Below are positions 4,690 through 23,315 of a stretch of 59,919 nucleotides of DNA, in pieces. The notes under the pieces are model-generated. The model did not search any database, had not been told where the DNA came from, and was given only the letters and a program-made list of their open reading frames with translations. Made by a program: the position numbers and the translations under genes. Source of the stretch: an uncultured Methanospirillum sp. (GTDB taxonomy: Archaea > Halobacteriota > Methanomicrobia > Methanomicrobiales > Methanospirillaceae); NCBI GenBank assembly GCA_964637135.1, contig CAZWTX010000013.1:1-59919 (forward strand), read 5' to 3'. Positions within the stretch are counted from its first letter, which is position 1. Each line of letters starts with the position of its first letter.

Positions 4690-4974
4690 ATGAACATACG
4701 AGATCTCGTCATCATCATCGCAGGGCTTTTTTTCGCCCTGAACGTGATGAGTTTCTGTACCGTCGCCGGGAATCTCACAGACACCCGATCGCCTATCGAT
4801 GCGGAGGATTCTGGAGATACCGGACCGGTCAGTGAAGAAACCGGACGGGTGACAGAGGGTACGGATTTGCAGTCAGAACCGTATAACCTGATCATCGGAC
4901 TTGTCCTCCATGGCATGCATCATGCGGTGGAACACTCAATCGAGGATACAGACCCGGAAGCGGGCAATCCCTGA
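4690..4974 (+). CDS. Small secreted/membrane hypothetical protein
   Basis: Hydrophobic N-terminus followed by an acidic linker; AT-rich promoter-like region upstream. Confidence 0.5.
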   Translation: MNIRDLVIIIAGLFFALNVMSFCTVAGNLTDTRSPIDAEDSGDTGPVSEETGRVTEGTDLQSEPYNLIIGLVLHGMHHAVEHSIEDTDPEAGNP

Positions 4975-5230
4975 GAACACGGCTCTCCAACCATGGGGAG
5001 CATTGCAGACCTGGATCTGCATATCTTATTTTATCAGGTAACCGTCCCGTCAATCCTGGGAGTATGATACCTTCTCATGTTCTGGTATCCTGAAAACCGG
5101 ATGACTGATCACGAGCCGGAATGAGAATCCTGGTTGCCCGGATCGGTGAACCTTACCTTGGGGGCGATATATATAGATCATTTTATTGTTTCACGAAATA
5201 TATATCTCGGCATACCAACGGGGGAGTCCA

Positions 5231-8200
5231 ATGAGAAACGGGGGTAAATATTACCAGGGTATCCTGTTCTGTATCCTCTTATCAGTGTTCATCGTTCCAA
5301 TAACCGGGAGTCTTATTCCTGGTGAACCGGAATCAACCGGAATTTTTACCGGGATTGTTGAATCAGGAACAGATATAGCAGACATATCCGCCATTGCTGC
5401 CTGGAAAGAGAATCTAAGCGATACAGACCGGAAGATCTCGTCAGATCTGCTCATGCTCATCAGCAGCCCGGAGAACCTGCCGGCCGGTATGGATACCGGG
5501 AGCCTGAAATTATCATTGAAGGAAGATGGTGTTCTCGGATACTCATCCGGAGAGGAGGGTGTTTCCACAGGGTCTGTGGAGAACGTGTATGTATACATCA
5601 ATCTCTTCCCGGGGAATGCGACCACGATAGCCGACCCCCTGGTCACCTCGGTTGCTGCGAGAGACGAAGAGAACCATATCATGGCTGCCTGGGTTCCCCT
5701 GTCAAATATCACGGCTATCAGCCGGTTGCCAGAAGTCCGGCTGATCACCCCGGTTTATCCGGCCGTCACAAACACGGGATCCGTGACGTCCGAAGGGGAT
5801 GCTATCCATATGGCTGATCAGACCCGGGTGCTTCCCGGCGGGATCAACGGGACCGGGATCACGGTAGGGGTCATCTCAGACGGTGTTGACAGCCGGAACA
5901 GTTCGATTGCCACAGGAGATCTTCCGGCTGATTTCCGGGTGCTCTCCAATGATCAGGGAGGGGATGAAGGGACCGCAATGGGAGAGATCGTCTACGATCT
6001 CGCCCCGGGAAGCGATCTCATCTTTGCCGATATGGCATCAGATCAGATCTCCTTTGCCCGGCACATGAAAGATCTCTCTGAAGCCGGCTGCCAGGTCATC
6101 GTGGACGATATCTACTATCCTGATGAACCGGCCTTCGAGGACGGAATCATCGCACAGGCAGCTGATATCCTCTATTACCGGAACAACACTCTCATGGTCT
6201 CTTCCGCCGGAAACTATGCCCAGCGGCATTTCATCGGCAATTTCTCGCCTTTCAACGGGACGGACTGGATGGACTTCAGCAGCGTCGGTAATGCATCCTA
6301 TGCTCCGACACCTGAATACCCGTATCTCTATGTCAATATCCTGCCAGCCTATCAGACACGAATCGCCCTACAATGGAATGATAAATGGGGATATTCGGAG
6401 AATGATTACGATCTGTATCTTTATAATTGGGGAGGAGATCTCCTTGCATCGAGTGTAGATTTCCAGGACGGGTCTGGAAATCCGTTTGAATGCATCCGGT
6501 ACACGAATACCGGATCTTCAGCCATCGTCGGAGTAATTAAAGTACGGTTATATGACGGGGTGAACAGGACTATCGCCGTTGATACCTTTGGCGCCCCCAC
6601 TTACACCAATAACCGGGTGAATACTTCCTCTAGCTGGGGCCATTCCTGCTCGGCCGGAACCCTCGGGGCAGCTGCGATCCCGTATGATGCAATCACCACC
6701 ATTGAATCCTTCTCATCTCACGGTCCGCGGCCTATCTTCTTCCCGTTTCAGGAGGTACGGCAGAAACCGGATATCAGCGGAATTGATGGCGTGAAGATCA
6801 CCGGGGCCGGTGACTTTGGTTCCTATGACGGGACGAACTGGCGGTTCTATGGTACCAGTGCCGCAGCTCCGCATATCGCCGGGCTCGGGGCTCTCCTCTG
6901 GAGTGCAAACCCGTCCCTAACCGCAGCAGAAGTACGCAGCCTGCTCACCTCTTCTGCCGTGGACCTTGGTGAACCGGGATATGATCCTGTCTTCGGGCAT
7001 GGCCGGGCAGATGTCCTTGCCGCATACCGGCAGCTTACCGCTGCACCCCCGGTGGTCACCGGGATCGTTCCGGACCAGGGGACCGCCGGATCATCCGTTC
7101 CGTTCACCATCTCTGGAACAAATCTGAAGAGCCAGGCGGTGATCAATCTGACGAGAGATGGATCAGGAAAGATCACCACGATTGGGACCGTTTCAGGACC
7201 AGACCTCGTCGGAACCTTCGCCCTGCCCCCAGGAGCAGCCACCGGAGCCTGGAACGTAAGTGTGAACGAAGGAGGAGGCATGAGCAATGACAATATCCTC
7301 TTTACCGTCCGATCTCCCAATCTGACGGCAGATTTCACGGCTGAACCCCGGGGAGGAACAGCACCGCTCCTCGTCAATTTCACCGATCTCTCTACCGGAA
7401 GCCCGGCCACCTGGGCCTGGACATTCGGGGACGGGGGCATCTCCTCCCTGCAGCACCCGTCCCATCTCTATACCAGTCCCGGATTATTCACGGTCAACCT
7501 TACCGTGACCAATTCTCAGGGTTCTGACACGAAGGTCGCTGAGCGGTACATCTACGTCGGGTATTCCTTCACCAGGACCATCACGGCTACCGCCGGTCCG
7601 GGAGGAATCATCGTTCCGAACGGATCGGTTCGTGTACTTATCGGACAGGATCAGACCTTTGCGATCACTCCGGACGATGGATACACCATATCATCGGTGC
7701 TCGTGGACGGGACCGGGGTTGGGCCGGTCAGTTCCTATACCTTCAATCAGGTAAGCGAAGATCATACGATCTCCGCCGCCTTTACCCGGGGATATACCCT
7801 CGCTTCGTCCACTGACGCATTCGGGTATATCATACCGGAGGGCGTGGTAACGAAACCGGAGGGGTCAGACCAGACCTATGATATCCGGTCCCTCCCCGGA
7901 GCGGAGATCGCCCGGCTCACCGACAACGATACACCGGTACCCGTCCCGGCCGGATCCGCGGCATTCACCTATCCCATCAGTAATATCGTTGACAACCATA
8001 CCGTCACTGCCACAAACGACGCCAAAGAGGGCGTGATCCTCGCGGCATTCACTGTGAACAAGACCTCAGGCCCTGCTCCGCTGACCGTGCTTTTCAATGA
8101 TACCTCTGCCGGCGGACCTGACCAGTGGTACTGGACCTTCGGGGACGGATCATCTTCGACGGATCGGAACATGACCCATACGTACCAGGTTCCGGGCGTC

Positions 8201-8278
8201 TACGATGTCAGTCTCTGGATCAGAAGCAGCCAGGCCACCGGGAGTATTGAGAAACCCGGGCTGATCACGGCCTCATAA
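5231..8278 (+). CDS. Secreted S53-like subtilase (Glu in place of catalytic His) with Ig-like, PKD and bacterial-repeat domains
   Basis: Signal peptide; GVISDG, GDEGTAMGEIVYDLAPG, SSAGN, YGTSAAAPH; PKD motifs WTFGDG (x2); GGGGAG RBS before ATG 5231. Confidence 0.9.
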   Translation: MRNGGKYYQGILFCILLSVFIVPITGSLIPGEPESTGIFTGIVESGTDIADISAIAAWKENLSDTDRKISSDLLMLISSPENLPAGMDTGSLKLSLKEDGVLGYSSGEEGVSTGSVENVYVYINLFPGNATTIADPLVTSVAARDEENHIMAAWVPLSNITAISRLPEVRLITPVYPAVTNTGSVTSEGDAIHMADQTRVLPGGINGTGITVGVISDGVDSRNSSIATGDLPADFRVLSNDQGGDEGTAMGEIVYDLAPGSDLIFADMASDQISFARHMKDLSEAGCQVIVDDIYYPDEPAFEDGIIAQAADILYYRNNTLMVSSAGNYAQRHFIGNFSPFNGTDWMDFSSVGNASYAPTPEYPYLYVNILPAYQTRIALQWNDKWGYSENDYDLYLYNWGGDLLASSVDFQDGSGNPFECIRYTNTGSSAIVGVIKVRLYDGVNRTIAVDTFGAPTYTNNRVNTSSSWGHSCSAGTLGAAAIPYDAITTIESFSSHGPRPIFFPFQEVRQKPDISGIDGVKITGAGDFGSYDGTNWRFYGTSAAAPHIAGLGALLWSANPSLTAAEVRSLLTSSAVDLGEPGYDPVFGHGRADVLAAYRQLTAAPPVVTGIVPDQGTAGSSVPFTISGTNLKSQAVINLTRDGSGKITTIGTVSGPDLVGTFALPPGAATGAWNVSVNEGGGMSNDNILFTVRSPNLTADFTAEPRGGTAPLLVNFTDLSTGSPATWAWTFGDGGISSLQHPSHLYTSPGLFTVNLTVTNSQGSDTKVAERYIYVGYSFTRTITATAGPGGIIVPNGSVRVLIGQDQTFAITPDDGYTISSVLVDGTGVGPVSSYTFNQVSEDHTISAAFTRGYTLASSTDAFGYIIPEGVVTKPEGSDQTYDIRSLPGAEIARLTDNDTPVPVPAGSAAFTYPISNIVDNHTVTATNDAKEGVILAAFTVNKTSGPAPLTVLFNDTSAGGPDQWYWTFGDGSSSTDRNMTHTYQVPGVYDVSLWIRSSQATGSIEKPGLITAS
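7793..8278 (+). repeat. 486-nt C-terminal module, copy 1 of 4
   Basis: YTL.SS.DAFGYI to stop codon; colinear and gap-free with 11665, 15606 and 19511. Confidence 0.95.
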
Positions 8279-8379
8279 TCACTTTTTACGCCGCAGGAAA
8301 AAAGGCACACAAATATTCAATTGGTAAAATATATTTTATCGCCGTCTAAATCACACAAATATATGGAGTACGGGGAGTA

Positions 8380-11300
8380 ATGAACAACAAAGGGGTTTCC
8401 CTGCTCATTCTCGGGATTCTTCTCCTGTGTACCATGGGGATCGGTGTCGCGACTGAATCTCCGGGTTCAGTATATTCGCCGGAACCGAACGGACAGGCTG
8501 ATACTCCGATGGATACCCCATTGGAAACCGGGCTGGTATTCGTCAGGTTCCACACCCCTGAATACACGGATGGATCGGCTGCCATCGTGAGTGATGACGA
8601 GATCGCTTCCATCCATGCATCGGTCGGAACAACCGTTATCAAGACCTTCTCCCCGGAATTTCTCCCCGGCCTCCAGGTGGTTGAGGTTCCCGACTCCATG
8701 ACCGTCAGTGAAGCGGTCGCCAAGTATACCCAATACCCGTCGGTCGAGTATGCGGTAGCCGATCACCTGATCCCAAGAGAACCTGATTTTTTCATCCCTG
8801 ATACTCTCAGTACGGGGAGCACCACCTTCCCGGACGATCCGCTCTATCCATCCCAGTGGAGCCTGAATAACACCGGCCAGTACGGGGGAACGCCCGGAGC
8901 TGACATCGATATCGAAGGGGCCTGGAACGTGACCATGAACGCTTCACCGGCCATCATCGTCGGTGTCACTGACAGCGGGATTGATTACCTCCATTCTGAC
9001 ATCAGGGAGAACATCTGGACCGATCCTGCCACCGGAGATCACGGGTATGACTTTTACGACGATGACCATGATCCGATGGATGATGATTATCACGGCACAT
9101 CCTGTGCCGGGGTCATCGGGGCGACAGTGAATAATGCGATCGGTATCGCCGGCATTTCAGGAGATACCGAGCTCATGGCCCTGAAAATTGACGGCCCGTA
9201 CGGGCAGTCAGACTACCTCGCGATACAGGCTATCGAGTACGCAACCCTTCACGGCGCAGATATCCTCTCAAACTCCTGGGAGGTGGCATACCAGGATGAA
9301 GCAATGTATGATGCCATCAGCGCATTTCCCGGGCTCTTTGTCTGGTCGGCAGCCAACGATAACATGGATCTTCAGATCGACGACATCCGGACGCCGGGTT
9401 TCCGCCTCCCAAACGTAATCGCGGTTATGGCGACCGATAAAAACGATAACCGGGCAAATTTCTCAAATTACGGGAGAAATGTCGTCCATCTCGGTGCTCC
9501 CGGGGATCTGATCCTCTCGACATATCCGGATCACAAAAGCCTCATCTGCGACCGGTTCAATTCCACGGAGAACTGGACCGGGGATGCGAACTGGTTCTGC
9601 ACGAATAAAACATATATCAGCCCCCCCACAAGCCTCGGTATCCGGATAAATGGTTCAGTCAGGACAACCACCATCACGCTGAACTACCCGGTCAACCTGA
9701 CCGGCCTTGAAAACCCGGTGGTCGGATTTAACATCGTCGGAAAAAGAAAAAACGGCATATTATACCTCCAGTACTCTCCTGACGGGATGGATTGGAAGAC
9801 AATACTCCGGGTCAGCACTATCGTGCCGGATGGCGTGTACTGGTGTACAGAACGCAGATCAGCCCTTGCTGAGACGAATACCACCTATTTCAGGTTCTTA
9901 TATGAGAATGCCGATCCTTCCGATGAATTCTATATCGACAACTTCCTTGTCGCCGGACAGGATCACGTCAATCCAGACTACTCCTACGGGGTCTATGGCG
10001 GAACCTCGGCGGCAGCACCTCATGTAGCCGGTGTCGCCGCCCTCGTGATGGCCGCCCACCCGGAGTACAACACCGCCCAGGTAAAGGCAGCCCTCATGAA
10101 CACGGTCGACCAGGTTTCCGCTCTGTCCGGGACCTGTATCACGAACGGCAGGCTGAACGCATCCGCGGCAGTCCGGTACCGCCTCCCTTCATATGATGCC
10201 ATCGGCAGCACCAACCTCACCATGAAGATCCCGGTGAAAGAACCGGTCAGTATCACTGCCAGGTTCGTGAACTCAGGCTCTGCTACCTGGCAGATCGGGG
10301 ACGGGATCGCTCTCCGGCCGGTCAGCGATGATGCACGGCTCCTCGGGCCGGAGACGATCCCGCTGACCGATTACCCGGTTGCCCCGGGAGAGGAGGTGAA
10401 CATCTCCTGGACCTTCTCTCCCCCGGACCGGTTTGGTACCATACATCCGGAATGGAGGCTGCAGCGGAACGGAACCGGGTTTGGCCAGGTGGTCGGAGGA
10501 ACCACGACCCTGACCACCTGGGAACGACTTCCGGATACATCAGGTACAGTAAATTATGCACTGGTTGCAAACGGGCCGTTCATTCACCACATCGGGGGCG
10601 GAACCTACTTTTCCCTGGAGAATAGCCATTACCGGTTCGATATCAGGAACCGTACCTGGACCCGGATGGCAGATCTTCCGGTGGTAATGGGGTACATCAA
10701 GGGAGCCTCGATAAACGGCAGGATCTACATCCCGGGAGGATACTCATCCACGGGGGTGACAAACACAACATACGTCTATGATCCGTCGACCGATTCCTGG
10801 TCACAAATCCCGGCAGGAGACGGCATCCCGGCACGATACTGGTACAGCACGGCCGTCCTCGCCGACCGGCTCTACGTGCTCGGCGGATATTCCGGGGGAA
10901 AAACGACCAGTCTTGTCTATTACCTGAACACCACGACCAGTACCTGGCACCAGGCCCCTTCGATGCACGAGAGCCGGTATAACTGCATGGTTTCCGCGGG
11001 AGACGGATCCATCCTGGCAGCCGGGGGATGGACCAATGCCACAACCCGCCTGAAGTCAGTTGAACGGTTTAACGGAACAGACTGGTCCTCTCTCGCCGAT
11101 ATTCCCGGATGTGACAGCTGGGCACATGCCGGGTATGCATCAGCACCGGACGGGTCCCTCTGGATCGCCGGCGGAGTCAGGATTATCAATGGAAAGGAGA
11201 TCCTGGAGGATACCGCAACCTGCAATCTCTCCACCGGAGCATGGATGATCACCCCTGATCTCCCGGTACTGGGTTCACCCCGGTCCCTCGCCGGGGGAGC

Positions 11301-12150
11301 AATCGCCCCTGACGGGTACTTCTACCTGGGAGGAGGCCTTTCCGAGACATACCCGTACGGAGCTTTTGAACGGCTGAACGTCTGGACTCCGCACATCTCC
11401 GGGGTGACCGGCCTCACCAACACCACATGGCTCCCTGATTCCATCACCTGGAACTGGACATGCCCGGATGATCCGGTCCTTGACCACGTGATGATCAGCC
11501 TGGATGGCGTCTTCCAGGCGAACCTCACCGGGGTGAACGCGTTTACGGCATCAGGCCTGATGCCACAGACCCCATACACCCTCTCGGTCCAGACCGTTGA
11601 TCTCTTCGGCAACCCGGGTACCCGTATCAGCCATACCGCGATGACAGCCCTGGCTCCACCGGTATATACCCTGAACTCGTCCTCCGATGCATTCGGGTAC
11701 ATCAGGCCGGAAGGAGTGATGACGAAGGATCCCGGGTCAAACCAGACCTATGACATCCGGTCCCTTCCCGGGGCGGAGATCGCCCGGCTCACCGATAACG
11801 AGACACCGGTATCTGTCCCGACAGGAGCCGCTTCATACACGTATCCCCTCACCAATATCGCCGACAACCACACGGTTACCGTCACGAACGATGCCAAAGA
11901 GGGCGTGATCCTTGCAGCATTCACCGCGAATCAGACTTCAGGTCAGGCCCCGTTGACCGTGCTCTTCACCGACACCTCTGCCGGCGGACCCGACCGGTGG
12001 TACTGGACGTTTGGGGACGGTATGTCTTCAATGGACCGGAACGCGACCCATACGTATTCTGAACCGGGCATCTACGATGTCAGCCTCTGGATCAGGAACG
12101 GTCAGGCAACCGGGAGCATTGAGAAGCCGGGGATGATATCAGTCCAATAA
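8380..12150 (+). CDS. Secreted S8 subtilase, intact triad, with beta-rich insert, Nbr1-FW Ig-like, Kelch, FN3, repeat and PKD domains
   Basis: D198 (VTDSG), H238 (HGTS), N326 (SAAN), S543 (GTSAAAP); Kelch repeats (IYIPGGY, LYVLGGY); WTFGDG. Confidence 0.92.
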   Translation: MNNKGVSLLILGILLLCTMGIGVATESPGSVYSPEPNGQADTPMDTPLETGLVFVRFHTPEYTDGSAAIVSDDEIASIHASVGTTVIKTFSPEFLPGLQVVEVPDSMTVSEAVAKYTQYPSVEYAVADHLIPREPDFFIPDTLSTGSTTFPDDPLYPSQWSLNNTGQYGGTPGADIDIEGAWNVTMNASPAIIVGVTDSGIDYLHSDIRENIWTDPATGDHGYDFYDDDHDPMDDDYHGTSCAGVIGATVNNAIGIAGISGDTELMALKIDGPYGQSDYLAIQAIEYATLHGADILSNSWEVAYQDEAMYDAISAFPGLFVWSAANDNMDLQIDDIRTPGFRLPNVIAVMATDKNDNRANFSNYGRNVVHLGAPGDLILSTYPDHKSLICDRFNSTENWTGDANWFCTNKTYISPPTSLGIRINGSVRTTTITLNYPVNLTGLENPVVGFNIVGKRKNGILYLQYSPDGMDWKTILRVSTIVPDGVYWCTERRSALAETNTTYFRFLYENADPSDEFYIDNFLVAGQDHVNPDYSYGVYGGTSAAAPHVAGVAALVMAAHPEYNTAQVKAALMNTVDQVSALSGTCITNGRLNASAAVRYRLPSYDAIGSTNLTMKIPVKEPVSITARFVNSGSATWQIGDGIALRPVSDDARLLGPETIPLTDYPVAPGEEVNISWTFSPPDRFGTIHPEWRLQRNGTGFGQVVGGTTTLTTWERLPDTSGTVNYALVANGPFIHHIGGGTYFSLENSHYRFDIRNRTWTRMADLPVVMGYIKGASINGRIYIPGGYSSTGVTNTTYVYDPSTDSWSQIPAGDGIPARYWYSTAVLADRLYVLGGYSGGKTTSLVYYLNTTTSTWHQAPSMHESRYNCMVSAGDGSILAAGGWTNATTRLKSVERFNGTDWSSLADIPGCDSWAHAGYASAPDGSLWIAGGVRIINGKEILEDTATCNLSTGAWMITPDLPVLGSPRSLAGGAIAPDGYFYLGGGLSETYPYGAFERLNVWTPHISGVTGLTNTTWLPDSITWNWTCPDDPVLDHVMISLDGVFQANLTGVNAFTASGLMPQTPYTLSVQTVDLFGNPGTRISHTAMTALAPPVYTLNSSSDAFGYIRPEGVMTKDPGSNQTYDIRSLPGAEIARLTDNETPVSVPTGAASYTYPLTNIADNHTVTVTNDAKEGVILAAFTANQTSGQAPLTVLFTDTSAGGPDRWYWTFGDGMSSMDRNATHTYSEPGIYDVSLWIRNGQATGSIEKPGMISVQ
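11665..12150 (+). repeat. 486-nt C-terminal module, copy 2 of 4
   Basis: Direct repeat of 7793-8278. Confidence 0.95.
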
Positions 12151-12233
12151 AGGACACATTAAAAACCGTGGAAAATGGATTTATTCTTTTTTAAATATTC
12201 AAATAACAACATATAATATCTCCCCCGGAGAAA

Positions 12234-12259
12234 CCTCACCAATATATAAACGGGTGAGG
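12234..12259 (+). promoter_or_regulatory. Inverted repeat enclosing a TATA-like box and overlapping the RBS
   Basis: CCTCACC-AATATATAAACG-GGTGAGG, ending 8 nt before ATG 12267. Confidence 0.45.
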
Positions 12260-12266
12260 GAGTGCA

Positions 12267-15200
12267 ATGCAGTTCAGGGGATGCATCATACTGATTGTCG
12301 GGATAATAATCTTCGGCAGCATGAATATCGGTTTTGCAGAAGCGGATCCGGTTCAAAAGTTCCTATCAGGAAATTCTCTTCCGGAAACCGCAATTGCGGA
12401 TGGACCGGGTGACACTGGATCAAACCCCGGGACGAACCTGATCCTTGTCAGGTATGCCACCCGGGAGGCCGTGAACGGATCAGACGCAGGGGTATCAGAT
12501 GAGCTCATGACCCGGATCAACGAGGAGGTCGGGACGACCGTTGTCGAGACCTTCTCCCCTGATTTCCTCCCCGGCCTGCAGGCGGTACAGATCCCGGCAG
12601 GCTCGGATCCCGACGAGATCATCGCCAGGTACAGGCAGTACCCGTCCGTGGTATACGCGGAACCTGACCGGATGGAACCGCAAAAATCCGTATCGCCCAT
12701 CACCATCCCAGTTCCATCCGAATCAGTCGCCAGCCAGGGTATCCCGAATGATCCGCTCTTTCCGCAGCAGTGGGCCCTGTTGAATACCGGGCAGACCGGC
12801 GGGACTCCCGGTGCCGACATCGATGCACTCAATGCCTGGAATATCACGAACGAATCGCCGGATATCGTCATCGGGCTGATCGACAGCGGGGTCGATTACA
12901 ACCATGAAGACCTGAAGGATTCCATCTGGACCGATCCCGTCACCGGGGAACACGGATACGACTTTACAAATGATGTTCCAGACCCGATGGACGACCAGTC
13001 GCACGGGACCCATGCTGCAGGCATCATTGCCGCAACCGGAAACAACCATCTCGGCGTGACCGGAGTGACCTGGAAGGCAAAGATCATGGCCCTGAAGATT
13101 CGCTGTGAGGGAGATTTCTCCGATTACGAGATTATCAGGGCTATCCGGTATGCAAAAGAGCACCATGCAGATATACTGGTCCTTCCCTGGGATAACCCGA
13201 TAACAAGCCAGGCAATGAAAGATGCAATCGAGGCATTTCAGGGACCGTTTATCTGGTCTACAGGTCATCAGGGCACGAACTACGATGAATTACCGGCTTT
13301 TGCCACCGGATATTCAGCTTCCAACGCAATCGTGGTTATGGCAACCGGAAAAAATGATACGAAAGCAGATTACTCAAATTACGGGAAGAACGTCGTGCAT
13401 CTCGCCGCACCGGGAGAGGAAATTATCAGCACGGTTCCCCAGCGGAAGATCCTCTTTTCAGATACCTTCACCACCGGTGCGAACTGGACGATCCCCTCCC
13501 TCGGAGGAATTTCACCAGACCGGTTTACCAGCGCTCCCTCAAGCCTGAAACTGGCAACTAACGAATCAACGGGAGACCGGTACTTCACCCTGAAATCCCC
13601 GGTAAACGTCTCTGGTGCTGAATATGTGGATGTCTCCTTCCAGGCAGACTACATGACCGGAGCCGCGAATCTGGAACTTGAATACTCCACCAGCGGGGAG
13701 GAATGGGAATCGGCTATGTCCCAGCAATATTTTGATGATCAGTTTTACCCGGTGAGAACCTGTCTTTTTGACAGAGGGGCAGACTCGCTCTATCTCAGGT
13801 TCAGGTATAGCGGGGATCCGGAGACACGGGCATACGTGGACGATCTCATGGTCACTGCTCTCAATCACACCGCCCCGGACATCTCCTATGGCTATCATAT
13901 CGAGCCGTATCTTGATCCTGTCTCACGCAGTGATCTCGATGCATCCCCGTTCGTTGCGGGTACGACTGCCCTCGTGATGGCAATCCATCCCTCGTACAAT
14001 ACGGCACAGATCACGTCGGCACTGCTTAACTCCGTCGATTCCATCCCTGACCTGGCTACATCCTGTAGGACCGGGGGACGACTGAATGCCTCTGCTGCCC
14101 TGACATGGAACGCTCCTGCGTATGATGCCATCACCGTTGCTGTCCCTCCCCTGAAATTCTCCGCCGGGAACCAGAGCGAGGTGACCATCAGGATGATCAA
14201 TGCAGGAACAGCAGACTGGAGCAATGCCGCAGGGATTGTTCTGAAACCGGATAACGAGGTGGCAACCGCCATCGGACCGTCTGTGATCCGGATCCCGGAG
14301 ACGATTACGATCCCGCCCGGGGGAGAGTACTCCTTCGCCATCCCGGTCACCGCACCGGGAGTATTTGGATCCTATGAACCACGATGGCGGATGTACCAGG
14401 GAACCCTCCCCTTTGGGGAGGCAGGTTCAAGGAAACTCGTGGTCACCACCTGGGAGATGATCCCCTCCCTCCCGGAACCAGCCATCCGGCAGGCAGTGAT
14501 CGCCGATGATGCCTATATCTACTCGATCGGGGGAATCAACGGTTCAGCGGTTACCGACCGGAATTGGCGGTATGATATCAGAAATGCATCGTGGAGCAGC
14601 CGGGCACCCCTTCCACGGCCCCTGTACTATGCAAGCGGAAATTCGGTAAACGGGAGGCTATACGTAACCGGGGGAACCGGAGGGGCCGGAAACTCGAACA
14701 TGACCTACATGTACGATCCCGGTACCGACTCCTGGTCATCAATCCCTTCCACCGGCGTTCCGGATCGTTTCATGCATCAGACCGGCGTCCTGGGTGAACG
14801 GCTCTATCTCCTCGGGGGAGAGGGAAGAAGCGGAGATCTCGACTCCGTGTATTACCTGAATACCTCGACCCTGACCTGGCATGAGGCCCCCCCGATGGGC
14901 ATCCCGCGACAATTATTTGCTGCTTCTTCAGGAGACGGCTCTATCCTGGTTGCCGGCGGTCTGTATGATTATAGAGGATTGAACAGCGGAGCCAGGTTTG
15001 ACGGGAATACCTGGTCAGCCATCCCGAATATCACCGGTACCTCATCATGGTTCGACCAGGCAGGGGCATCCTCCCCGGATGGGTCGCTCTGGATGGCCGG
15101 AGGGTACCGGATAATGCAGGAACAAGGTTCGGGATGGGAAGACCAGACCGCATCCTATAATTCCTCGACCAATACCTGGAAGATCACACCCGATCTTCCC

Positions 15201-16091
15201 AGGCTTCAGCTCGGTCGTGCGGAATGCGGAGGAGCCATGGGACTGGACGGGAAATTCTACGTTATCGGCGGACGGAACTCGGGAATTCGTACTGCCACCG
15301 CTGAACGCCTCCACGTCTATGATCCGGTCATTTCACCGGTGACCAGCCTGACGAATACCACGTATGCCACAGATCGCATCACCTGGACCTGGAATGAGCC
15401 GGAGGAGCGGGTTTATGGCTCGGTGATGATCTACCTCAACGGGATCTTCCAGGAGAACCTCACGAAGGGATCGTCGGCATTTTCGTCAATCAATCTCACA
15501 CCAGGGACCTCGTACACCCTCTCCACCCGGACAGTCGATCTCTTCGGGACACCTGATGATGCCTGGGCTAACCATACGGCGATGACGGCCCTTGTCCCGC
15601 CAGTCTATACCCTGCACTCCTCCTCGGACGCATTCGGGTACATCAGGCCGGAAGGGGTGGTAACGAAACCGGAGGGGTCAGACCAGACGTATGATATCCG
15701 GTCCCTCCCGGGAGCAGAGATCGCCCGGGTCACCGACAATGATACACCGGTATCCGTCCCGGCCGGGGTCGTTTCGTACACGTATCCGCTAACCGGTATC
15801 GCTGACAACCATACCGTGATCGTTGCGAACGATGCAAAAGACGGGGTTCTTCTCGCGGCATTCACCGTGAACACGACATCAGGCCCGGCCCCGCTGACCG
15901 TGCTCTTTACCGATGCCTCTGCCGGCGGGCCAGACCAGTGGTACTGGACGTTTGGGGACGACACGTCATCGATGGACCGGAACGTGAATCACACATATAC
16001 TACCCCGGGAGTCTATGATGTCAGTCTCTGGATCCGGAACAATCAGGCAACCGGGAGCATTGAAAAACCGGGAATTGTCGTCGTCAGGTGA
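12267..16091 (+). CDS. Secreted S8-family pseudoprotease (nucleophile Ser absent), same domain architecture as 8380
   Basis: D206 and H246 retained; oxyanion site WSTGH; GTSAAAP replaced by SDLDASP; Kelch, FN3 and PKD present. Confidence 0.88.
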   Translation: MQFRGCIILIVGIIIFGSMNIGFAEADPVQKFLSGNSLPETAIADGPGDTGSNPGTNLILVRYATREAVNGSDAGVSDELMTRINEEVGTTVVETFSPDFLPGLQAVQIPAGSDPDEIIARYRQYPSVVYAEPDRMEPQKSVSPITIPVPSESVASQGIPNDPLFPQQWALLNTGQTGGTPGADIDALNAWNITNESPDIVIGLIDSGVDYNHEDLKDSIWTDPVTGEHGYDFTNDVPDPMDDQSHGTHAAGIIAATGNNHLGVTGVTWKAKIMALKIRCEGDFSDYEIIRAIRYAKEHHADILVLPWDNPITSQAMKDAIEAFQGPFIWSTGHQGTNYDELPAFATGYSASNAIVVMATGKNDTKADYSNYGKNVVHLAAPGEEIISTVPQRKILFSDTFTTGANWTIPSLGGISPDRFTSAPSSLKLATNESTGDRYFTLKSPVNVSGAEYVDVSFQADYMTGAANLELEYSTSGEEWESAMSQQYFDDQFYPVRTCLFDRGADSLYLRFRYSGDPETRAYVDDLMVTALNHTAPDISYGYHIEPYLDPVSRSDLDASPFVAGTTALVMAIHPSYNTAQITSALLNSVDSIPDLATSCRTGGRLNASAALTWNAPAYDAITVAVPPLKFSAGNQSEVTIRMINAGTADWSNAAGIVLKPDNEVATAIGPSVIRIPETITIPPGGEYSFAIPVTAPGVFGSYEPRWRMYQGTLPFGEAGSRKLVVTTWEMIPSLPEPAIRQAVIADDAYIYSIGGINGSAVTDRNWRYDIRNASWSSRAPLPRPLYYASGNSVNGRLYVTGGTGGAGNSNMTYMYDPGTDSWSSIPSTGVPDRFMHQTGVLGERLYLLGGEGRSGDLDSVYYLNTSTLTWHEAPPMGIPRQLFAASSGDGSILVAGGLYDYRGLNSGARFDGNTWSAIPNITGTSSWFDQAGASSPDGSLWMAGGYRIMQEQGSGWEDQTASYNSSTNTWKITPDLPRLQLGRAECGGAMGLDGKFYVIGGRNSGIRTATAERLHVYDPVISPVTSLTNTTYATDRITWTWNEPEERVYGSVMIYLNGIFQENLTKGSSAFSSINLTPGTSYTLSTRTVDLFGTPDDAWANHTAMTALVPPVYTLHSSSDAFGYIRPEGVVTKPEGSDQTYDIRSLPGAEIARVTDNDTPVSVPAGVVSYTYPLTGIADNHTVIVANDAKDGVLLAAFTVNTTSGPAPLTVLFTDASAGGPDQWYWTFGDDTSSMDRNVNHTYTTPGVYDVSLWIRNNQATGSIEKPGIVVVR
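15606..16091 (+). repeat. 486-nt C-terminal module, copy 3 of 4
   Basis: Direct repeat; close similarity to copy 4 extends upstream through the FN3 domain (about 15320). Confidence 0.95.
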
Positions 16092-16195
16092 AAGGATTAA
16101 ACCCCTTCTAAAAATTATTTTGTCACACATATACAATACGGTAAATATATCATCTCCCCGTAGAAATTTCCTGACTATATATATTCGGGGGAGCG

Positions 16196-19100
16196 ATGCA
16201 AAACAGAGTCTTTTTTCTGCTAACGGTAGGGGTTCTTCTCTTCGGCAGCATCGTGCCGGGTGGAGCAGGAGAACTTTCAGTTCCGGATCCGGTTCCTGAT
16301 TTAATACAGGCTCCGGTTTCACCAGATGCAGGGGTCCAGGGAATTGAACCGGATGATTCTGGTTCCCTGGCTGAAACCAACCGTATTCTCGTCAGGTTCA
16401 GGATATCGTCAGACACCGGCGGATCGGCGGTAACTGCTTCGGAGGAGATCATCTCGGCGACCAATACCATGATCGGGGCTACGGTTGTACATGCCTTCTC
16501 GCCGGAGTTCCTTCCCGGCTTGCAGATCGTTGAGATTCCTGCCGGGGAGAATGTCGACGATGCAATTGCCCGGTACCGGATGTCTCCGTATGTCGAGTAC
16601 GCAGAACCGGATCAGGTGATATCTGTAGAACAACCATCACTCACCTCAATCCACGCCCCCTCCGAATCCGTCACACAGACGGTCCCGGATGATCCGCTCT
16701 TTCCGGAGCAGTGGGCCCTTGATAATACCGGGCAGTCAGGAGGGACGCCTGGTGCAGATATCGACGCAACGGGTGCCTGGAACATCACGAACGAATCCAC
16801 GGGTGTGATAATCGGGATCATCGGAACCGGGGTCGATTACACCCATCCTGATCTCAGCGAGAACATCTGGACCGATCCGATCACCGGAGAGCACGGGTAT
16901 GACCTTTTCCTTAATATCCCCGATCCGATGGACGAACAGGGAGATGGAACCCGTACCGCAGGAATTATCGCCGCTGCAGGGAACAACGGTATCGGTATTG
17001 CCGGTACCACCTGGAAGGCAGAGATCATGCCCATTAAGGCAACAGATCAATGGGGATCTATCCAGTACTCCTCCATTATCCAGGGCATTGAGTACGCTTC
17101 CCTGCACCAGGCAGACATCCTGGTGCTCCCAAAAAATCCCTCCCTTTCTGTTAAATATATCTGCACAAACGAGGCGTTTTATGAAGCCATCTCCCATTTT
17201 AGCGGTCTTGTCGTATGGTCAACCCAGGACCTGAAAGATGATCTGAACCAGATGACCAATAACGCAAACCCGATCCTCTTCACCTCCCCGAATCTCATCC
17301 TCGTGACCGCATCCGATAATCAGGATCATAAGGTGGATCTCTCCGCATACGGGAACCGGTGCGTTCATCTCGCAGCACCTGGGAAAAATATCATTACCAC
17401 TGCCATCGCCGGACGCGAGAATATCTTTTCTGATGATTTCTCCACGGCAGCCAACTGGACGATGGATCCGGCCTGGACGATCTCGGATGGCCTGAAAGCA
17501 AACGCGACCGGAAACTGCACGTTAAAGGCCCCGCTGAACCTTACCGGCATCGAACACCCTGAGTTAACCTTCCAGGTACTGAGCAGCCTGACTACCGGGG
17601 TGCTGTATCTTGAAGGATCTGTTGATGGAACCACCTGGTCTCCCATCGAACAGATACTCCCGTCACCGGATACAGGCTGGTATACCTCGCGATCGTCAAT
17701 GCAGGAATTTTCCGGGGAGAGAACCGTTTATTTCCGGTTCAGGCATGTTGCATCCGGGCCGGATGACCAGGTCTTCGTCGATGACGTCACGCTCAACGCA
17801 CTCAGTGATGTCTATTCTGCCGGCACCGGAGACCAGGCAGCATTCGTTGCCGGAACGGCATCACTCGTGAAGAAAATGCATCCTGACTATTCAGCCGTCC
17901 AGATCCGGTCGGCAGTCATGAACACGGTTGATCATATCCCCGGCCTTGACCTGTATTGTCGCTCCGGAGGGAGACTGAACGCCTCTGCGGCAGTACGGTT
18001 CCAGACCCGGCCATACGACGCAACCGGGGGGATGTCAGTCATCCCGAAGGCACATGGAGGGACAGAAGTCAGGGTCACCATCCGGATGATCAATGCCGGG
18101 ACATCAGACTGGACGAATGGTGCAGGGGTCAGCTTGAAACCGGAGAACGAAATTGCACGGATCATGGGACCTGCGGTAATTCCACTACCGGGTAATCAGA
18201 CCGTCCGACCAGGAGAAGGCTGCACGTTTGAGATTCCCGTCACCGTTCCAGCCGCTTTCGGAACCTACTGGCCGGAATGGCGGATGTACCGCGAGAATAT
18301 CCCGTTCGGGGAGTCCTATTATGTAAAAATCGAAAGCACCACCTGGGAGACGATTGCCCCGTTACCTGAGACCCAGTACTACCAGGCTGTGATCGCTGAT
18401 GGTGCGTATATCTACTCTATCAGCGGATCCAACGGAAGCACATCGACAGATTACACAGATCATACCTGGCGGTATGATATCCGTAACAACACCTGGAGTG
18501 CATGCTCCCCCCTGCCTGAGCCGCTCGTGTCATCAGACGGACAGGCGATCACCGGGAAACTGTATATTGCCGGTGGATTTGGGATAAACGGCCGGACAAA
18601 CCGGACCTATGTCTACGATCCTGCAGGTGACTCATGGACAGCCATTCCTGCCGGGGCAGGCACACCGGCAGTCTATGCGTATCGGACCGGGGTTATCGGG
18701 GATCGGTTGTACCGCATCGGGGGATCCAGCCAGGATGCATACCTGAACTCATTCGTCTGGGCCCTGAATACCACCACCAATACCTGGTCTCCGGCAGAGC
18801 CGATGCATGAAGGAAGAACCTTTTTTGCTTCATCTTCCGGGGACGGGAAGATCATTGTTGCCGGTACCTCAAACACAACAGAACTCTTCGACGGGAAGAA
18901 CTGGTCCTACCTTCAGGATATTCCGGGAACTAAAGAATGGATACAGACCACCGGAGGTTCTGCACCTGATGGATCGCTCTGGATGGCAGGGGGGTATCTA
19001 TACGGGCCGGACGATAAAAACCTTGGAAGTGATTATACCGGAACGTATAACCGGTCCACGGGGGAGTGGAGACTCACCCCGGCGTTGCCGAAAATGACAA

Positions 19101-19996
19101 GGCCACGGCATCTCCCCTTCGGGGTGATGGGCCTTGATGGAAACTTCTATCTCATCGGGGGACGCGGAACCCTCGCAAACGGATCTCTTGGAACTCTGTC
19201 TGAATGTGAACGCCTCCATGTCTTTGATCCGGTCATCTCCCCGGTGACCAACATGACGAACACCTCATATGCCACAGATCGCATCACCTGGACCTGGAAT
19301 GAGCCGGGGGATCGGGTCTATGGATCCGTTATGGTTTCCTTGAACGGGATCTTCCAGGGAAACCTGACGAAGGGATCGTCGGCATTCACGGCAACCGGCC
19401 TTGCACCGGGGACCTCGTACACCCTCTCCACCCGGACAGTCGATCTCTTCGGGACACCTGATGATGCCTGGGCCAACCATACCGCGATGACCGCCCCGAC
19501 TCCGCTGGTATATACCCTGAACTCGTCCTCGGATCCATTCGGGTACATCAGGCCGGAAGGGATGGTCACGAAATCGGCAGGGTCAGACCAGACGTATGAC
19601 ATCCGGTCCCTTCCGGGAGCGGAGATAGCCCGGCTCACCGACAATGATACACCGGTACCCGTCCCGGCCGGGGCTGTTTCATACACGTATCCGCTGACCG
19701 GTATCGCTGACAACCACACCGTCACCGTCACGAACGACGCCAAAGAGGGCGTGATCCTCGCGGCATTCACCGCGAACACAACATCCGGTCAGGCCCCGCT
19801 GACGGTGTTCTTTAATGATACCTCTGCCGGCGGACCTGACCAGTGGTACTGGACGTTTGGGGACGGAACATCTTCGATGGACCGGAACGTAACCCATACG
19901 TACCAGGCTCCTGGCGTCTACGATGTCAGCCTCTGGATCAGGAACAGCCAGGCCACCGGGAGTATTGAGAAACCCGGGCTGATCACGGTCACGTGA
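16196..19996 (+). CDS. Secreted S8-family pseudoprotease (entire triad absent), same domain architecture as 8380
   Basis: IIGTG (D to G210), DGTR (H to D250), WSTQD (N to D345), GTGDQAAF (S to G545). Confidence 0.88.
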   Translation: MQNRVFFLLTVGVLLFGSIVPGGAGELSVPDPVPDLIQAPVSPDAGVQGIEPDDSGSLAETNRILVRFRISSDTGGSAVTASEEIISATNTMIGATVVHAFSPEFLPGLQIVEIPAGENVDDAIARYRMSPYVEYAEPDQVISVEQPSLTSIHAPSESVTQTVPDDPLFPEQWALDNTGQSGGTPGADIDATGAWNITNESTGVIIGIIGTGVDYTHPDLSENIWTDPITGEHGYDLFLNIPDPMDEQGDGTRTAGIIAAAGNNGIGIAGTTWKAEIMPIKATDQWGSIQYSSIIQGIEYASLHQADILVLPKNPSLSVKYICTNEAFYEAISHFSGLVVWSTQDLKDDLNQMTNNANPILFTSPNLILVTASDNQDHKVDLSAYGNRCVHLAAPGKNIITTAIAGRENIFSDDFSTAANWTMDPAWTISDGLKANATGNCTLKAPLNLTGIEHPELTFQVLSSLTTGVLYLEGSVDGTTWSPIEQILPSPDTGWYTSRSSMQEFSGERTVYFRFRHVASGPDDQVFVDDVTLNALSDVYSAGTGDQAAFVAGTASLVKKMHPDYSAVQIRSAVMNTVDHIPGLDLYCRSGGRLNASAAVRFQTRPYDATGGMSVIPKAHGGTEVRVTIRMINAGTSDWTNGAGVSLKPENEIARIMGPAVIPLPGNQTVRPGEGCTFEIPVTVPAAFGTYWPEWRMYRENIPFGESYYVKIESTTWETIAPLPETQYYQAVIADGAYIYSISGSNGSTSTDYTDHTWRYDIRNNTWSACSPLPEPLVSSDGQAITGKLYIAGGFGINGRTNRTYVYDPAGDSWTAIPAGAGTPAVYAYRTGVIGDRLYRIGGSSQDAYLNSFVWALNTTTNTWSPAEPMHEGRTFFASSSGDGKIIVAGTSNTTELFDGKNWSYLQDIPGTKEWIQTTGGSAPDGSLWMAGGYLYGPDDKNLGSDYTGTYNRSTGEWRLTPALPKMTRPRHLPFGVMGLDGNFYLIGGRGTLANGSLGTLSECERLHVFDPVISPVTNMTNTSYATDRITWTWNEPGDRVYGSVMVSLNGIFQGNLTKGSSAFTATGLAPGTSYTLSTRTVDLFGTPDDAWANHTAMTAPTPLVYTLNSSSDPFGYIRPEGMVTKSAGSDQTYDIRSLPGAEIARLTDNDTPVPVPAGAVSYTYPLTGIADNHTVTVTNDAKEGVILAAFTANTTSGQAPLTVFFNDTSAGGPDQWYWTFGDGTSSMDRNVTHTYQAPGVYDVSLWIRNSQATGSIEKPGLITVT
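19511..19996 (+). repeat. 486-nt C-terminal module, copy 4 of 4
   Basis: Direct repeat of 7793-8278. Confidence 0.95.
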
Positions 19997-21073: not shown

Positions 21074-21493
21074 ATGGATGAGGAACGCAGGCTTCGATAC
21101 CAGGGCAAGATCCACTGGATTCGTGGACGGGCCACCCTCATCTCGACCTGGACAGAAGGTGTTGAACTCAGGGAGATCGGAGAGGACCAAAAAACAACCC
21201 TCGCAATTTTCAAGGCATTTCAGGAGATCACCGAAGGCTGTATGGATCTCATCGCCATGTACCTCCGGGATCACCAGATCCCCTCCAGGGATGATTATTC
21301 AAATATCGAGCTGATCACAGGATTTTCTTCCGGACAGAAACAACTCCTTCGGGAGATGAACGGTCTTCGGAACCGGATTATTCACCGGTATAACGGAACA
21401 GATGAACGTCTTGCACTGGAAGGGATTATCCGATCGCTGCCAGAAATCCGGTCAATTATTCGGGAAGAAGAGAAATGGATCCTGAACGATTAA
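21074..21493 (+). CDS. hepT: HEPN (DUF86/HepT-like) RNase toxin
   Basis: RNRIIHRY = Rx4H HEPN motif followed by Tyr. Confidence 0.88.
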   Translation: MDEERRLRYQGKIHWIRGRATLISTWTEGVELREIGEDQKTTLAIFKAFQEITEGCMDLIAMYLRDHQIPSRDDYSNIELITGFSSGQKQLLREMNGLRNRIIHRYNGTDERLALEGIIRSLPEIRSIIREEEKWILND

Positions 21494-21852
21494 AATCTCT
21501 TATCCTCCAGGATCTTGCTGAAATCCTCAAAGAATGTGCAGGAGTATACCTCTATGGGTCGTATGCCTGGGGCCTGGCTGATGACCGGAGCGATATCGAT
21601 ATCTGTCTCGTGGCTGGAGAAAACCGGGATCCTGCTTCCCTCCAGTCTCTTGCATGGCGTCAGGTGAAGTCAGGAGCATATGACATCAGAATATTTGAAC
21701 ATCTCCCGTTGCATCTCCAGATCCGTATCATGGCCGGAGGTATTCTTCTCTATGCTCCAGACCCACCTGCCCTCGCCGAGTACCTCTATCCCTGGTGGAA
21801 ACAGTGGGATGACCAGCGGTGGTACCAGTCCCCTATTCCGGGTGCTCCGTAG
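21475..21852 (+). CDS. mntA: Minimal nucleotidyltransferase antitoxin (MNT)
   Basis: LYGSYAWG...SDIDI (GSx10DxD); overlaps the HEPN gene by 19 nt. Confidence 0.88.
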   Translation: MDPERLKSLILQDLAEILKECAGVYLYGSYAWGLADDRSDIDICLVAGENRDPASLQSLAWRQVKSGAYDIRIFEHLPLHLQIRIMAGGILLYAPDPPALAEYLYPWWKQWDDQRWYQSPIPGAP

Positions 21853-21989: not shown

Positions 21990-23315
21990 ATGACGCGGGC
22001 AGCAGCGGTACTCACCATCACACTTCTTTTCCTCACCATATCCACCGTATCAGCAGGACCCGGGCCTGACATCGCGTGGGAGCGGTGCATGGGGGGGAGC
22101 AATGTGGATCTCCCGGCCTCAGAACTGCTCCAGACGAGCGATGACGGTTTTTTCATCGCTGGTAAGACCTCGTCAGAAAACGGGGACGTCCTCGGAAATC
22201 ATGGCGGGGATGACGTCTGGGTCGTCAAGCTTGACCGGAACGGCCATCCCGAGTGGCAGAAATGTTTCGGGGGACCAGGAGCCGACGAGGCTCATAGTGC
22301 CGTGCAGACACCGGACGGCGGGTACATCGTCGCGGGAGTGACAGAATCACATTCCGGTGATGTATTCGGCAACCACGGAAGTGCCGATGCCTGGGTCGTG
22401 AAGATCACCTCTTCCGGGAGTATCGAATGGAAACGGTGCTACGGAGGGAGCAGGTGGGACGGTGCCCACGATATCATTCAGACTGCTGATAACGGATACC
22501 TTGTAGCCGGAGAAACCATGTCAGATGACGGGGACGTCACCGGAAACCACGGTATGAGGGATATCTGGATGATCAAACTCACCTCCTCGGGAAACATCGA
22601 CTGGCAGAGATGCCTCGGGGGAAGCGACGATGACGGCTCATTCAGTACCACTGCCATCCAGACACCGGACGGGGGATACCTCGTTGCCGGGGAGACCGGA
22701 TCCGTAAACGGCGACATCTCCGGAAACCATGGAAGCCATGACATCTGGATCGTGAAACTGACCTCTTCAGGCAGCGTTGCCTGGCAGAGATGCTTCGGCG
22801 GTTCAGAATGGGACGGAACGTGGAATGGCTGCCTGATCCTGATGCCCGACGGGGGATACCTCGTCGCCGGGGAGACGACATCGGGTGACGGGGATGTGCA
22901 TGATGTCCATGGCGGTAAGGACATCTGGGTGATCAGGCTCACCTCCTCGGGAAATATCAACTGGCAGAAGACACTCGGCGGATCTGCAGATGAGCAGGTC
23001 TCCTCGGTTGCCGACCTCGGAAAAGACGGATTTTTCCTCACGGGCATGACCCGGTCAGATGACGGGGACGTCTCCAAAAACCACGGACTGGCCGATCTCT
23101 GGGTAGTACGCCTCGGTCGCGACGGGGGTATCATCTGGCAGAAATGCCTCGGGGGGAGCGATGACGACGGGGCATACAGTACCGGCGGCATCCCGGTAGA
23201 TGACCGGGATTTCCTTGTTTCCGGGGATTCGTGGTCAGATGACGGGGATGTCTCAGGAAATCACGGCATGGCTGATCTCTGGGTGATCCGGACTGACGAG
23301 AAATTCACCGCCTGA
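21990..23315 (+). CDS. Secreted protein made of seven ~60-aa repeats (probable beta-propeller)
   Basis: Signal peptide; seven units of W.+C.GGS..D...TPDGGY.VAG.T.S.DGDV.GNHG..D.W..KL...G. Confidence 0.85.
   Translation: MTRAAAVLTITLLFLTISTVSAGPGPDIAWERCMGGSNVDLPASELLQTSDDGFFIAGKTSSENGDVLGNHGGDDVWVVKLDRNGHPEWQKCFGGPGADEAHSAVQTPDGGYIVAGVTESHSGDVFGNHGSADAWVVKITSSGSIEWKRCYGGSRWDGAHDIIQTADNGYLVAGETMSDDGDVTGNHGMRDIWMIKLTSSGNIDWQRCLGGSDDDGSFSTTAIQTPDGGYLVAGETGSVNGDISGNHGSHDIWIVKLTSSGSVAWQRCFGGSEWDGTWNGCLILMPDGGYLVAGETTSGDGDVHDVHGGKDIWVIRLTSSGNINWQKTLGGSADEQVSSVADLGKDGFFLTGMTRSDDGDVSKNHGLADLWVVRLGRDGGIIWQKCLGGSDDDGAYSTGGIPVDDRDFLVSGDSWSDDGDVSGNHGMADLWVIRTDEKFTA

Follow-up and report, generated by a model that had tools for sequence, protein, structure and literature searches.

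Pseudo-subtilases with demonstrated roles are known from Clostridioides spores. Methanospirillum, an archaeal genus that carries out H2/CO2 and formate metabolism inside a protease-resistant amyloid sheath, also encodes catalytically dead members of this protease family. Two of these lie in a 59,919-nucleotide (nt) stretch of DNA from an uncultured Methanospirillum sp. (contig CAZWTX010000013.1 of assembly GCA_964637135.1; the whole stretch is hereafter the window), in which positions 5231..19996 hold an array of four co-oriented, uninterrupted open reading frames (ORFs) of 1015, 1256, 1274 and 1266 amino acids (aa), designated genes 1 to 4, with intergenic gaps of 101-116 nt. The subtilase (S8) domain PF00082 was found in all four proteins, in agreement with an earlier note on this sequence, which had described four co-oriented subtilase genes of 1015-1274 aa in graded catalytic states and had read them as a candidate Csp-like sensing and proteolysis system. 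Each protein has a hydrophobic N-terminal segment and no further transmembrane-like stretch, and is likely secreted; these segments were judged by hydropathy, and 'signal-peptide-like' is used below in that sense. The analyses presented here indicate that genes 3 and 4 are maintained pseudoproteases, not decaying genes, and that the genus has disarmed and kept at least two subtilase lineages. No account of pseudo-subtilases in methanogens was found in a literature search that left subscription papers largely outside its reach; among the papers listed, those on pseudoproteases and subtilisins concerned mostly Clostridia and apicomplexan parasites and, by title, none archaea. The main texts of PMC11641113, PMC4704411 and PMC10787695 contain none of the terms 'peptidase', 'protease' and 'subtil', while their supplements may hold expression data.

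The array resembles the CspB/CspA/CspC system of Clostridioides difficile, in which an active subtilase is likewise encoded beside a pair of pseudoproteases that keep their folds and prodomains intact. Gene 1 shares with the Csp proteins an internal jelly roll at the same position, and gene 4 shares with CspC the replacement of the catalytic Ser by Gly. In contrast, genes 3 and 4 are MCP-01-like and carry another insert at another site, their products have signal-peptide-like N-termini and ~650 aa of Ig, Kelch, FN3, InlB-like and PKD domains, and the array, which contains no CspBA-type fusion, occurs in one species. Excerpts of PMC12880746 and PMC13434707 describe CspC:CspA as a solved heterodimer that binds taurocholate. 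Deseasin MCP-01 (Protein Data Bank (PDB) entry 3vv3), which the cores of genes 2 and 3 resemble, is a secreted subtilase of several domains, the C-terminal one being a binding domain; genes 2 to 4 additionally contain an internal β-sandwich insert and Ig, Kelch and FN3 domains, and the catalytic residues are missing from genes 3 and 4. Single-copy S8-Ig-Kelch-FN3 proteases of other Methanospirillum genomes have the same domain order as genes 2 to 4 but retain the catalytic Asp-His-Asn-Ser set (6/6), and possess neither the large insert nor the InlB-like plus PKD tail.

Catalytic states and selective maintenance

Gene 2 contains the residues of an active S8A protease, Asp-His-Ser and the oxyanion Asn (Asp198/His238/Asn326/Ser543), and is predicted to be active; genes 3 and 4 lack this set. 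Gene 3 retains Asp206 and His246, with the oxyanion Asn replaced by His334 and the Ser by Leu557 (D-H-H-L), and is further remodelled by a 9-residue insertion ahead of the Ser helix and by the conversion of the SNSW strand to VLPW. In gene 4 all four residues are replaced, by Gly210, Asp250, Asp345 and Gly545, respectively (G-D-D-G). Gene 1 displays Glu246 at the His position, Asn328 and Ser543, and is likewise a predicted active protease. The S8 cores of genes 2 to 4 score 83-141 bits against PF00082 (cut-off 21.8). Several catalytic codons of genes 3 and 4 differ from those of gene 2 at 2-3 bases, which suggests that activity was lost early, and the view that the common ancestor of the two genes was already dead derives mainly from the VLP and WST changes that they share.

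These states, which match those given in the earlier note, are not assembly errors, as contigs from independent studies agree with them. The stretch or part of it is carried by 20 runs from 11 studies (one possibly the source). Among the contigs compared from three other studies (4 of 24 listed runs), all four catalytic sites of gene 3 and three of the four of gene 4 are covered and show no listed change, the Asn site of gene 4 lying outside all listed contig pieces; zero coding indels were found in the array. The GC content at third codon positions (GC3) and the codon use of the array are ordinary for the genome.

Both dead copies have evolved well below the neutral rate. Branch models fitted with our own GY94 codon-model script gave the S8 core, on the terminal branches leading to genes 3 and 4, a ratio of non-synonymous to synonymous substitution rates (omega) of 0.29 against 0.17 in the background (twice the log-likelihood difference, 2dL, 4.8), with omega=1 rejected (2dL 53). 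The Ig plus Kelch region displayed an omega of 0.22, compared with 0.32 in the background (2dL 102 against omega=1). The prodomains of genes 3 and 4 have an omega of 0.18. At a neutral synonymous divergence (dS) of 0.7, ~95-98 stop codons would be expected per gene, and none was observed. Conservation in at least 90% of 79 intact relatives defines 46 columns, of which gene 3 keeps 35, gene 4 keeps 34 and gene 2 keeps 42, the intact relatives ranging from 33 to 46, and the losses in genes 3 and 4 lie mostly in active-site motifs. Because catalytic residues have been lost while the ORF and the fold, predicted intact in gene 3, stay under purifying selection, the two genes are maintained pseudoproteases, as the earlier note had supposed in suggesting a dN/dS comparison. 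The ratio of non-synonymous to synonymous polymorphism between strains was uninformative, as the strains are nearly identical, the contigs shallow and 40 of the 85 strain variants shown.

Architecture and origin of the array

Gene 1 belongs to a subfamily other than that of genes 2 to 4. It encodes a Glu-type subtilase with a Csp/Tk-SP-like jelly-roll insert, followed by TIG, PKD, InlB-B-like repeats and PKD, and its E246/N328/S543 set is accompanied by an invariant Asp in an IVDD strand. In true S53 sedolisins the Glu and Asp lie on one helix, in an E-x-x-x-D motif; this motif is absent from gene 1, which reads EGTAM and has its invariant Asp on a strand. A sedolisin-like Glu/Asp/Ser subset of subtilases, with the Asp on a β-strand, was reportedly described by Siezen and colleagues in 2007. 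Gene 1 resembles that subset in the Glu at the His position, the invariant IVDD-strand Asp, the Asn, the Ser and a variable classical Asp32 position, and differs from S53 enzymes in lacking the E-x-x-x-D helix; the activity of the subset is itself predicted. Among 60 Glu-type sequences from the genus the classical Asp32 position is D in 22 and N in 36, in contrast to the nearly invariant Glu, strand Asp, Asn and Ser (E-D-N-S kept in 59/60), a pattern of conservation that supports a putative Ser-Glu-Asp relay.

The gene 1 model aligned with CspB (PDB 4i0w) over 368/416 residues (Z 31.0, root-mean-square deviation (rmsd) 3.7), as against 241-269 residues for the other 49 listed subtilase entries, and the top ten Foldseek matches were CspA, CspC and CspB chains at 14-15% identity. 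No NCBIfam Csp hit was listed for gene 1. Each genome read contains 3-4 Glu-type genes with a Csp-like insert. Conversely, genes 2 to 4 reached only 12-17 bits against the NCBIfam CspC and CspBA models (cut-offs 675 and 1250), the gene 3 model aligned with CspB over 275 residues, the same as with insert-less subtilases, and its insert does not align structurally to the Csp insert. Membership of the dead copies in the Csp family was ruled out by their scores of 12-16 bits, below both cut-offs, and by the different insert at another site. From the models, Csp-like architecture belongs to gene 1, the predicted active gene, and not to the dead genes. The jelly-roll insert of the earlier note is in fact of two distinct kinds: that of gene 1 comes after the oxyanion Asn, at the Csp position, and superimposes on that of CspB, whereas in genes 2 to 4 the insert lies directly ahead of the catalytic Ser site.

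Genes 2 to 4 have in common the order prodomain, S8 core with a ~150-aa insert, NBR1-type Ig, Kelch propeller, FN3, InlB-B-like and PKD. The core of genes 2 and 3 best matches deseasin MCP-01 (E 1e-44), on which the confident gene 3 model (predicted local distance difference test score, pLDDT, 89) superimposes with Z 45.3 and rmsd 1.7. In this model the nucleophile helix begins Asp556-Leu557, with Leu occupying the Ser position, and the remodelled loop (residues 492-498 of the model), in which serines are present, is of low confidence. Pfam gave no name to the inserts. The insert of gene 3, the only one of the three modelled, resembled the ligand-binding β-sandwiches CBM61, gingipain K1 cleaved adhesin and CBM16 (VIA-align Z 15.2, 14.9 and 14.5, respectively; atlas lead 0.85-0.86). 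The inserts are among the least conserved domains, at 27-33% identity among genes 2 to 4.

The InlB-B-like plus PKD tails within the array are 80-85% identical to the gene 2 tail, compared with 42-48% for five other tails of the genome, and those of genes 1 and 4 share identical runs of 38-44 nt; identity so far above that of the other tails is a sign of gene conversion. Contigs of two studies show gene 4 letters in the PKD tail of gene 1 (window 8053-8226; 26/26 listed sites in one study and 16 in the other). This tract was not accepted as a conversion polymorphism, as the flanking identical runs of 38 and 44 nt could yield an assembly chimera. The same type of tail ends papain-like proteins (family read from motifs) on other contigs of the genome. 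These include tandem papain-like cysteine protease genes (L199:1219-5033 and L200:1580-3433, on contigs C42 and C71 of G000, the window's genome); on C42 they are followed by a subtilase, and the genome is rich in likely secreted proteases for a hydrogenotrophic methanogen.

The Ig plus Kelch region occurs in 4/24 other Methanospirillum genomes, in one copy each and always with an intact triad, and two more database relatives of the S8-Ig-Kelch type are also intact. These single-copy relatives (L002-L005, P0123 and P0130) form one clade with genes 2 to 4 (support 0.999), the nearest S8-Kelch relatives lying in Methanospirillum. No S8 neighbour stands beside the single-copy relatives in the three 20-kb regions read. 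Within the clade genes 3 and 4, which are ~50% identical, group together (ultrafast bootstrap (UFBoot) 88 for the core, 100 for Ig plus Kelch and 90 for the prodomain; 0.98 in a 101-sequence tree). No close relatives of genes 3 and 4 outside this genome were among the matches listed in a protein search with gene 3 or in metagenome, GTDB and representative searches, the last dominated by Kelch repeats. Among 13 genomes at least 90% complete, four, the window's genome included, have the Kelch-type gene, and the array flanks are not syntenic in the relatives checked. Genes 2 to 4 are thus, by their sequences, old tandem paralogues of one S8-Ig-Kelch gene, and the array is a lineage-specific expansion, as the relatives are single-copy and intact in the four other genomes. 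The search for the same active-plus-dead array in related genomes that the earlier note had proposed came back with one of the 25 genus genomes, and the single copies with intact triads in the four relatives spoke against its Csp-like reading.

Table 1. Positions of the array genes, their domains and upstream motifs (window coordinates), and of the second pseudo-subtilase (locus coordinates).
Feature	Position	Strand	Remark
Gene 1	5231..8278	+	Glu-type subtilase; predicted active
Gene 2	8380..12150	+	MCP-01-like subtilase, intact D/H/N/S; predicted active
Gene 3	12267..16091	+	Pseudoprotease; gene 2-type architecture
Gene 4	16196..19996	+	Pseudoprotease; gene 2-type architecture
Gene 1 jelly-roll insert	6218..6655	+	After oxyanion Asn; Csp-insert position and fold
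Gene 3 insert	13434..13901	+	Carbohydrate-binding/cleaved-adhesin-type β-sandwich, just before the catalytic Ser site
Gene 2 insert counterpart	9517-9975	+	
Gene 4 insert counterpart	17414-17815	+	
Gene 3 Ig + Kelch	14109..15326	+	No relaxed selection in the dead copies
Gene 2 Ig + Kelch counterpart	10183-11391	+	
Gene 4 Ig + Kelch counterpart	18005-19231	+	
Gene 4 InlB-B-like + PKD tail	19502..19993	+	Common to all four genes
Gene 1 tail counterpart	7793-8275	+	
Gene 2 tail counterpart	11656-12147	+	
Gene 3 tail counterpart	15597-16088	+	
Gene 1 upstream motif	5198..5208	+	ATATA-N1-4-ATCKC
Gene 2 upstream motif	8329..8342	+	ATATA-N1-4-ATCKC
Gene 3 (dead) upstream motif	12211..12222	+	ATATA-N1-4-ATCKC
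Gene 4 (dead) upstream motif	16145..16156	+	ATATA-N1-4-ATCKC
Second pseudo-subtilase	L155:871-2694 (G013)		Orthologues L324, L321, L243, L269, L296, L349, L360

A second inactivated lineage in the genus

PF00082 sequences were surveyed in 17 genomes of the genus, with up to ~16 candidates per genome, and in single loci from four more (one of another family); the survey omitted a few divergent S8 matches of neither class (for example L162) and could have missed heavily decayed copies. Each Methanospirillum genome surveyed contains 7-15 subtilases. Of the 60 Glu-type sequences 59 are intact, while the 152 His-type sequences comprise 141 that are intact, two that are cut before the Ser and nine that are substituted. 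A metagenome S8 census relied on loose motif patterns and was not used.

Of the nine substituted sequences, six represent a single orthologous gene, which a genus-wide search found in 24/25 genomes, intact in 16 and dead in 8. The dead orthologues carry S/N-Y-D-G at the D-H-N-S positions and form a single clade (UFBoot 100) that the tree places apart from genes 3 and 4, although the Asn to Asp and Ser to Gly replacements are common to this lineage and gene 4. In the six dead orthologues tested all 15 pairs gave an omega of 0.056-0.233 at a dS of 0.26-2.1. The Tyr, Asp and Gly replacements are invariant in all eight, and among the six checked the Gly codon shows synonymous changes only. The dead gene lies directly behind a Glu-type subtilase gene (gap ~57 nt in the five dead-clade genomes in which it was parsed), and the pair adjoins a gene that we take, from its sequence, to be groEL. 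The C-terminal half of the Glu-type partner is present in the same locus in 8/8, and its catalytic motifs are intact in the six of the eight that were read. An active subtilase gene beside a dead one is thus found at the core-genome pair in 8/24 genomes, and such neighbours recur independently in the genus; in the window's genome both members of the pair are intact, the orthologue of the dead gene lying at C5:91974-93785.

This lineage is a natural experiment, as one core-genome gene exists intact in 16 species representatives and, under strong constraint, dead in a clade of eight. It opens a direct test of which function a secreted protease fold has once catalysis is lost and of whether Csp-type signalling occurs outside spores. 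For experiments the core-genome pair offers a better target than the array. Automated annotation will count such genes as active proteases.

Three other altered subtilases were seen. A Glu-type gene in G022 (L196:571-2913), 81% identical to its intact orthologue L163 and in tandem with an intact paralogue, has the catalytic Ser replaced by Asn. A His-type gene in G002 (L318:700-2796) has only its catalytic Asp replaced, by Ala, and no S8 neighbour is listed on its contig. In the window's genome a genus-wide insert-bearing subtilase (L197; G000:C32:15861-18270, minus strand) is frameshifted into ORFs of 521 and 326 aa, by a lesion or an assembly error; a similar break is visible in G011.

Possible roles of the dead copies and the neighbourhood of the array

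The reading to which we give an even chance is that the products of genes 3 and 4 act at the cell envelope as binding proteins that do not cut, alongside the predicted active products of genes 1 and 2. The dead protease core would provide a folded scaffold that probably keeps its prodomain, as self-processing is impossible, and would present the diverged carbohydrate-binding/adhesin-type insert, the Ig domain and the Kelch propeller. The InlB-like plus PKD tail common to all four proteins would bring them to one set of envelope or sheath sites. The dead copies might there attach to glycans, proteins or partner cells, and could keep substrate in place for the active enzymes with no need of a stable complex. 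This is consistent with the paralogy, the catalytic loss, the selection on the fold, the domain content and the homogenised tails, with the likeness of the insert to ligand-binding domains, and with the conservation of an independent dead lineage in the genus. PKD-domain proteins co-purified with Methanospirillum hungatei sheaths, as reported in an excerpt of PMC6242892, and MCP-01, the closest solved relative, has a collagen-binding C-terminal domain according to part of PMC9549277. The genus likely reuses disarmed proteases as cell-surface binding proteins.

Several observations weigh against a binding role. It leaves the retention of a whole protease core unexplained, and a common fold is no proof of a common function. 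The array occurs in one of 25 genus genomes, and at the Asn and Ser sites gene 3 differs in its residues from gene 4. Synonymous changes are close to saturated, most domains having a pairwise dS of at least 1.9 (values above ~3 were treated as saturated and not used). Finally, 8 of the 11 listed strain variants of gene 3 are non-synonymous, six of the 11 coming from one contig of depth 3.5.

By analogy with C. difficile, the dead subtilases could bind a small ligand or signal, assemble into complexes, either among themselves or together with an active partner, and so gate envelope proteolysis, which we regard as unlikely. Such control would fit the Csp-like architecture of gene 1 and the recurrence of the order Glu-type then His-type in the core-genome pair, whose second member is dead in 8/24. 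The invariant Tyr, Asp and Gly of the second lineage, with its synonymous-only Gly codon, suggest a selected pocket; the Ser to Gly change common to gene 4 and that clade is also that of CspC (excerpt of PMC6636752); and three of four independent inactivations adjoin an intact S8 gene. However, the dead proteins have no Csp insert and score below the cut-offs of the Csp family models, the array is confined to one genome, and there are single-copy relatives that have no dead partner. In the best-assembled genomes about one S8 gene in four lies beside another S8 gene in any case (hand count), and duplication itself favours loss of activity. In addition, a TATA-like motif (ATATA-N1-4-ATCKC) precedes each of the four genes, which does not suggest one operon; the motif was defined after the four regions had been seen, so that its count of 7 against 0.62 by chance is circular. 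A scan for sigma-70 promoters and terminators stayed at chance level, its model not being suited to archaea. In its furthest form, which we likewise hold to be doubtful, Methanospirillum would at least twice have evolved an archaeal equivalent of the Csp germinosome of clostridia, in which secreted pseudo-subtilases with a selected non-catalytic pocket (Asn to Asp and Ser to Gly in both lineages) act as ligand receptors and gate a neighbouring Csp-fold Glu-type protease in sheath remodelling or the response to a partner.

It is quite improbable that the dead copies hold the active enzymes in check in trans by means of their retained prodomains, or soak up inhibitors or foreign proteases in a biofilm. 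The selection on the prodomains of genes 3 and 4 would accord with this, as would the fact that without the Ser a prodomain is not self-cleaved in the established course of subtilase maturation (PMC3567191, seen in part). Prodomains are also needed for folding, however, which explains their retention; the altered substrate-binding strand (SNSW to VLP) should weaken canonical inhibitor binding, and the large binding domains would be superfluous.

Less probable still is slow decay, in which redundant duplicates have recently lost activity and await deletion. The restriction of the array to one species, its non-syntenic flanks, the mildly raised omega of the core and the mostly non-synonymous gene 3 variants are in keeping with it. 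Against this, neutral evolution is rejected on both branches, no stops or indels have accumulated despite the divergence between genes 3 and 4, the damage centres on the active site with multiple changes per catalytic codon, and the upstream motifs are kept, in contrast to the frameshifted S8 gene on C32 of the same genome. Least probable of all is weak or altered catalysis by gene 3 through its unchanged Asp206-His246 pair and another nucleophile, for which the low-confidence remodelled loop offers serines, as the oxyanion Asn is gone, the model leaves Leu at the Ser position and the idea is inapplicable to gene 4.

The surroundings of the array include a short ORF (window 4690-4974), 250 nt upstream of gene 1, with a signal-peptide-like start, an acidic body and no credible Pfam match. 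One kb downstream of the array (window 21074-21852) lie genes for a HepT-like ribonuclease and a nucleotidyltransferase, a HEPN-MNT toxin-antitoxin-type pair, and nearby (window 21990-23315) one for a likely secreted repeat β-propeller protein, SBBP-like at a score below the cut-off.

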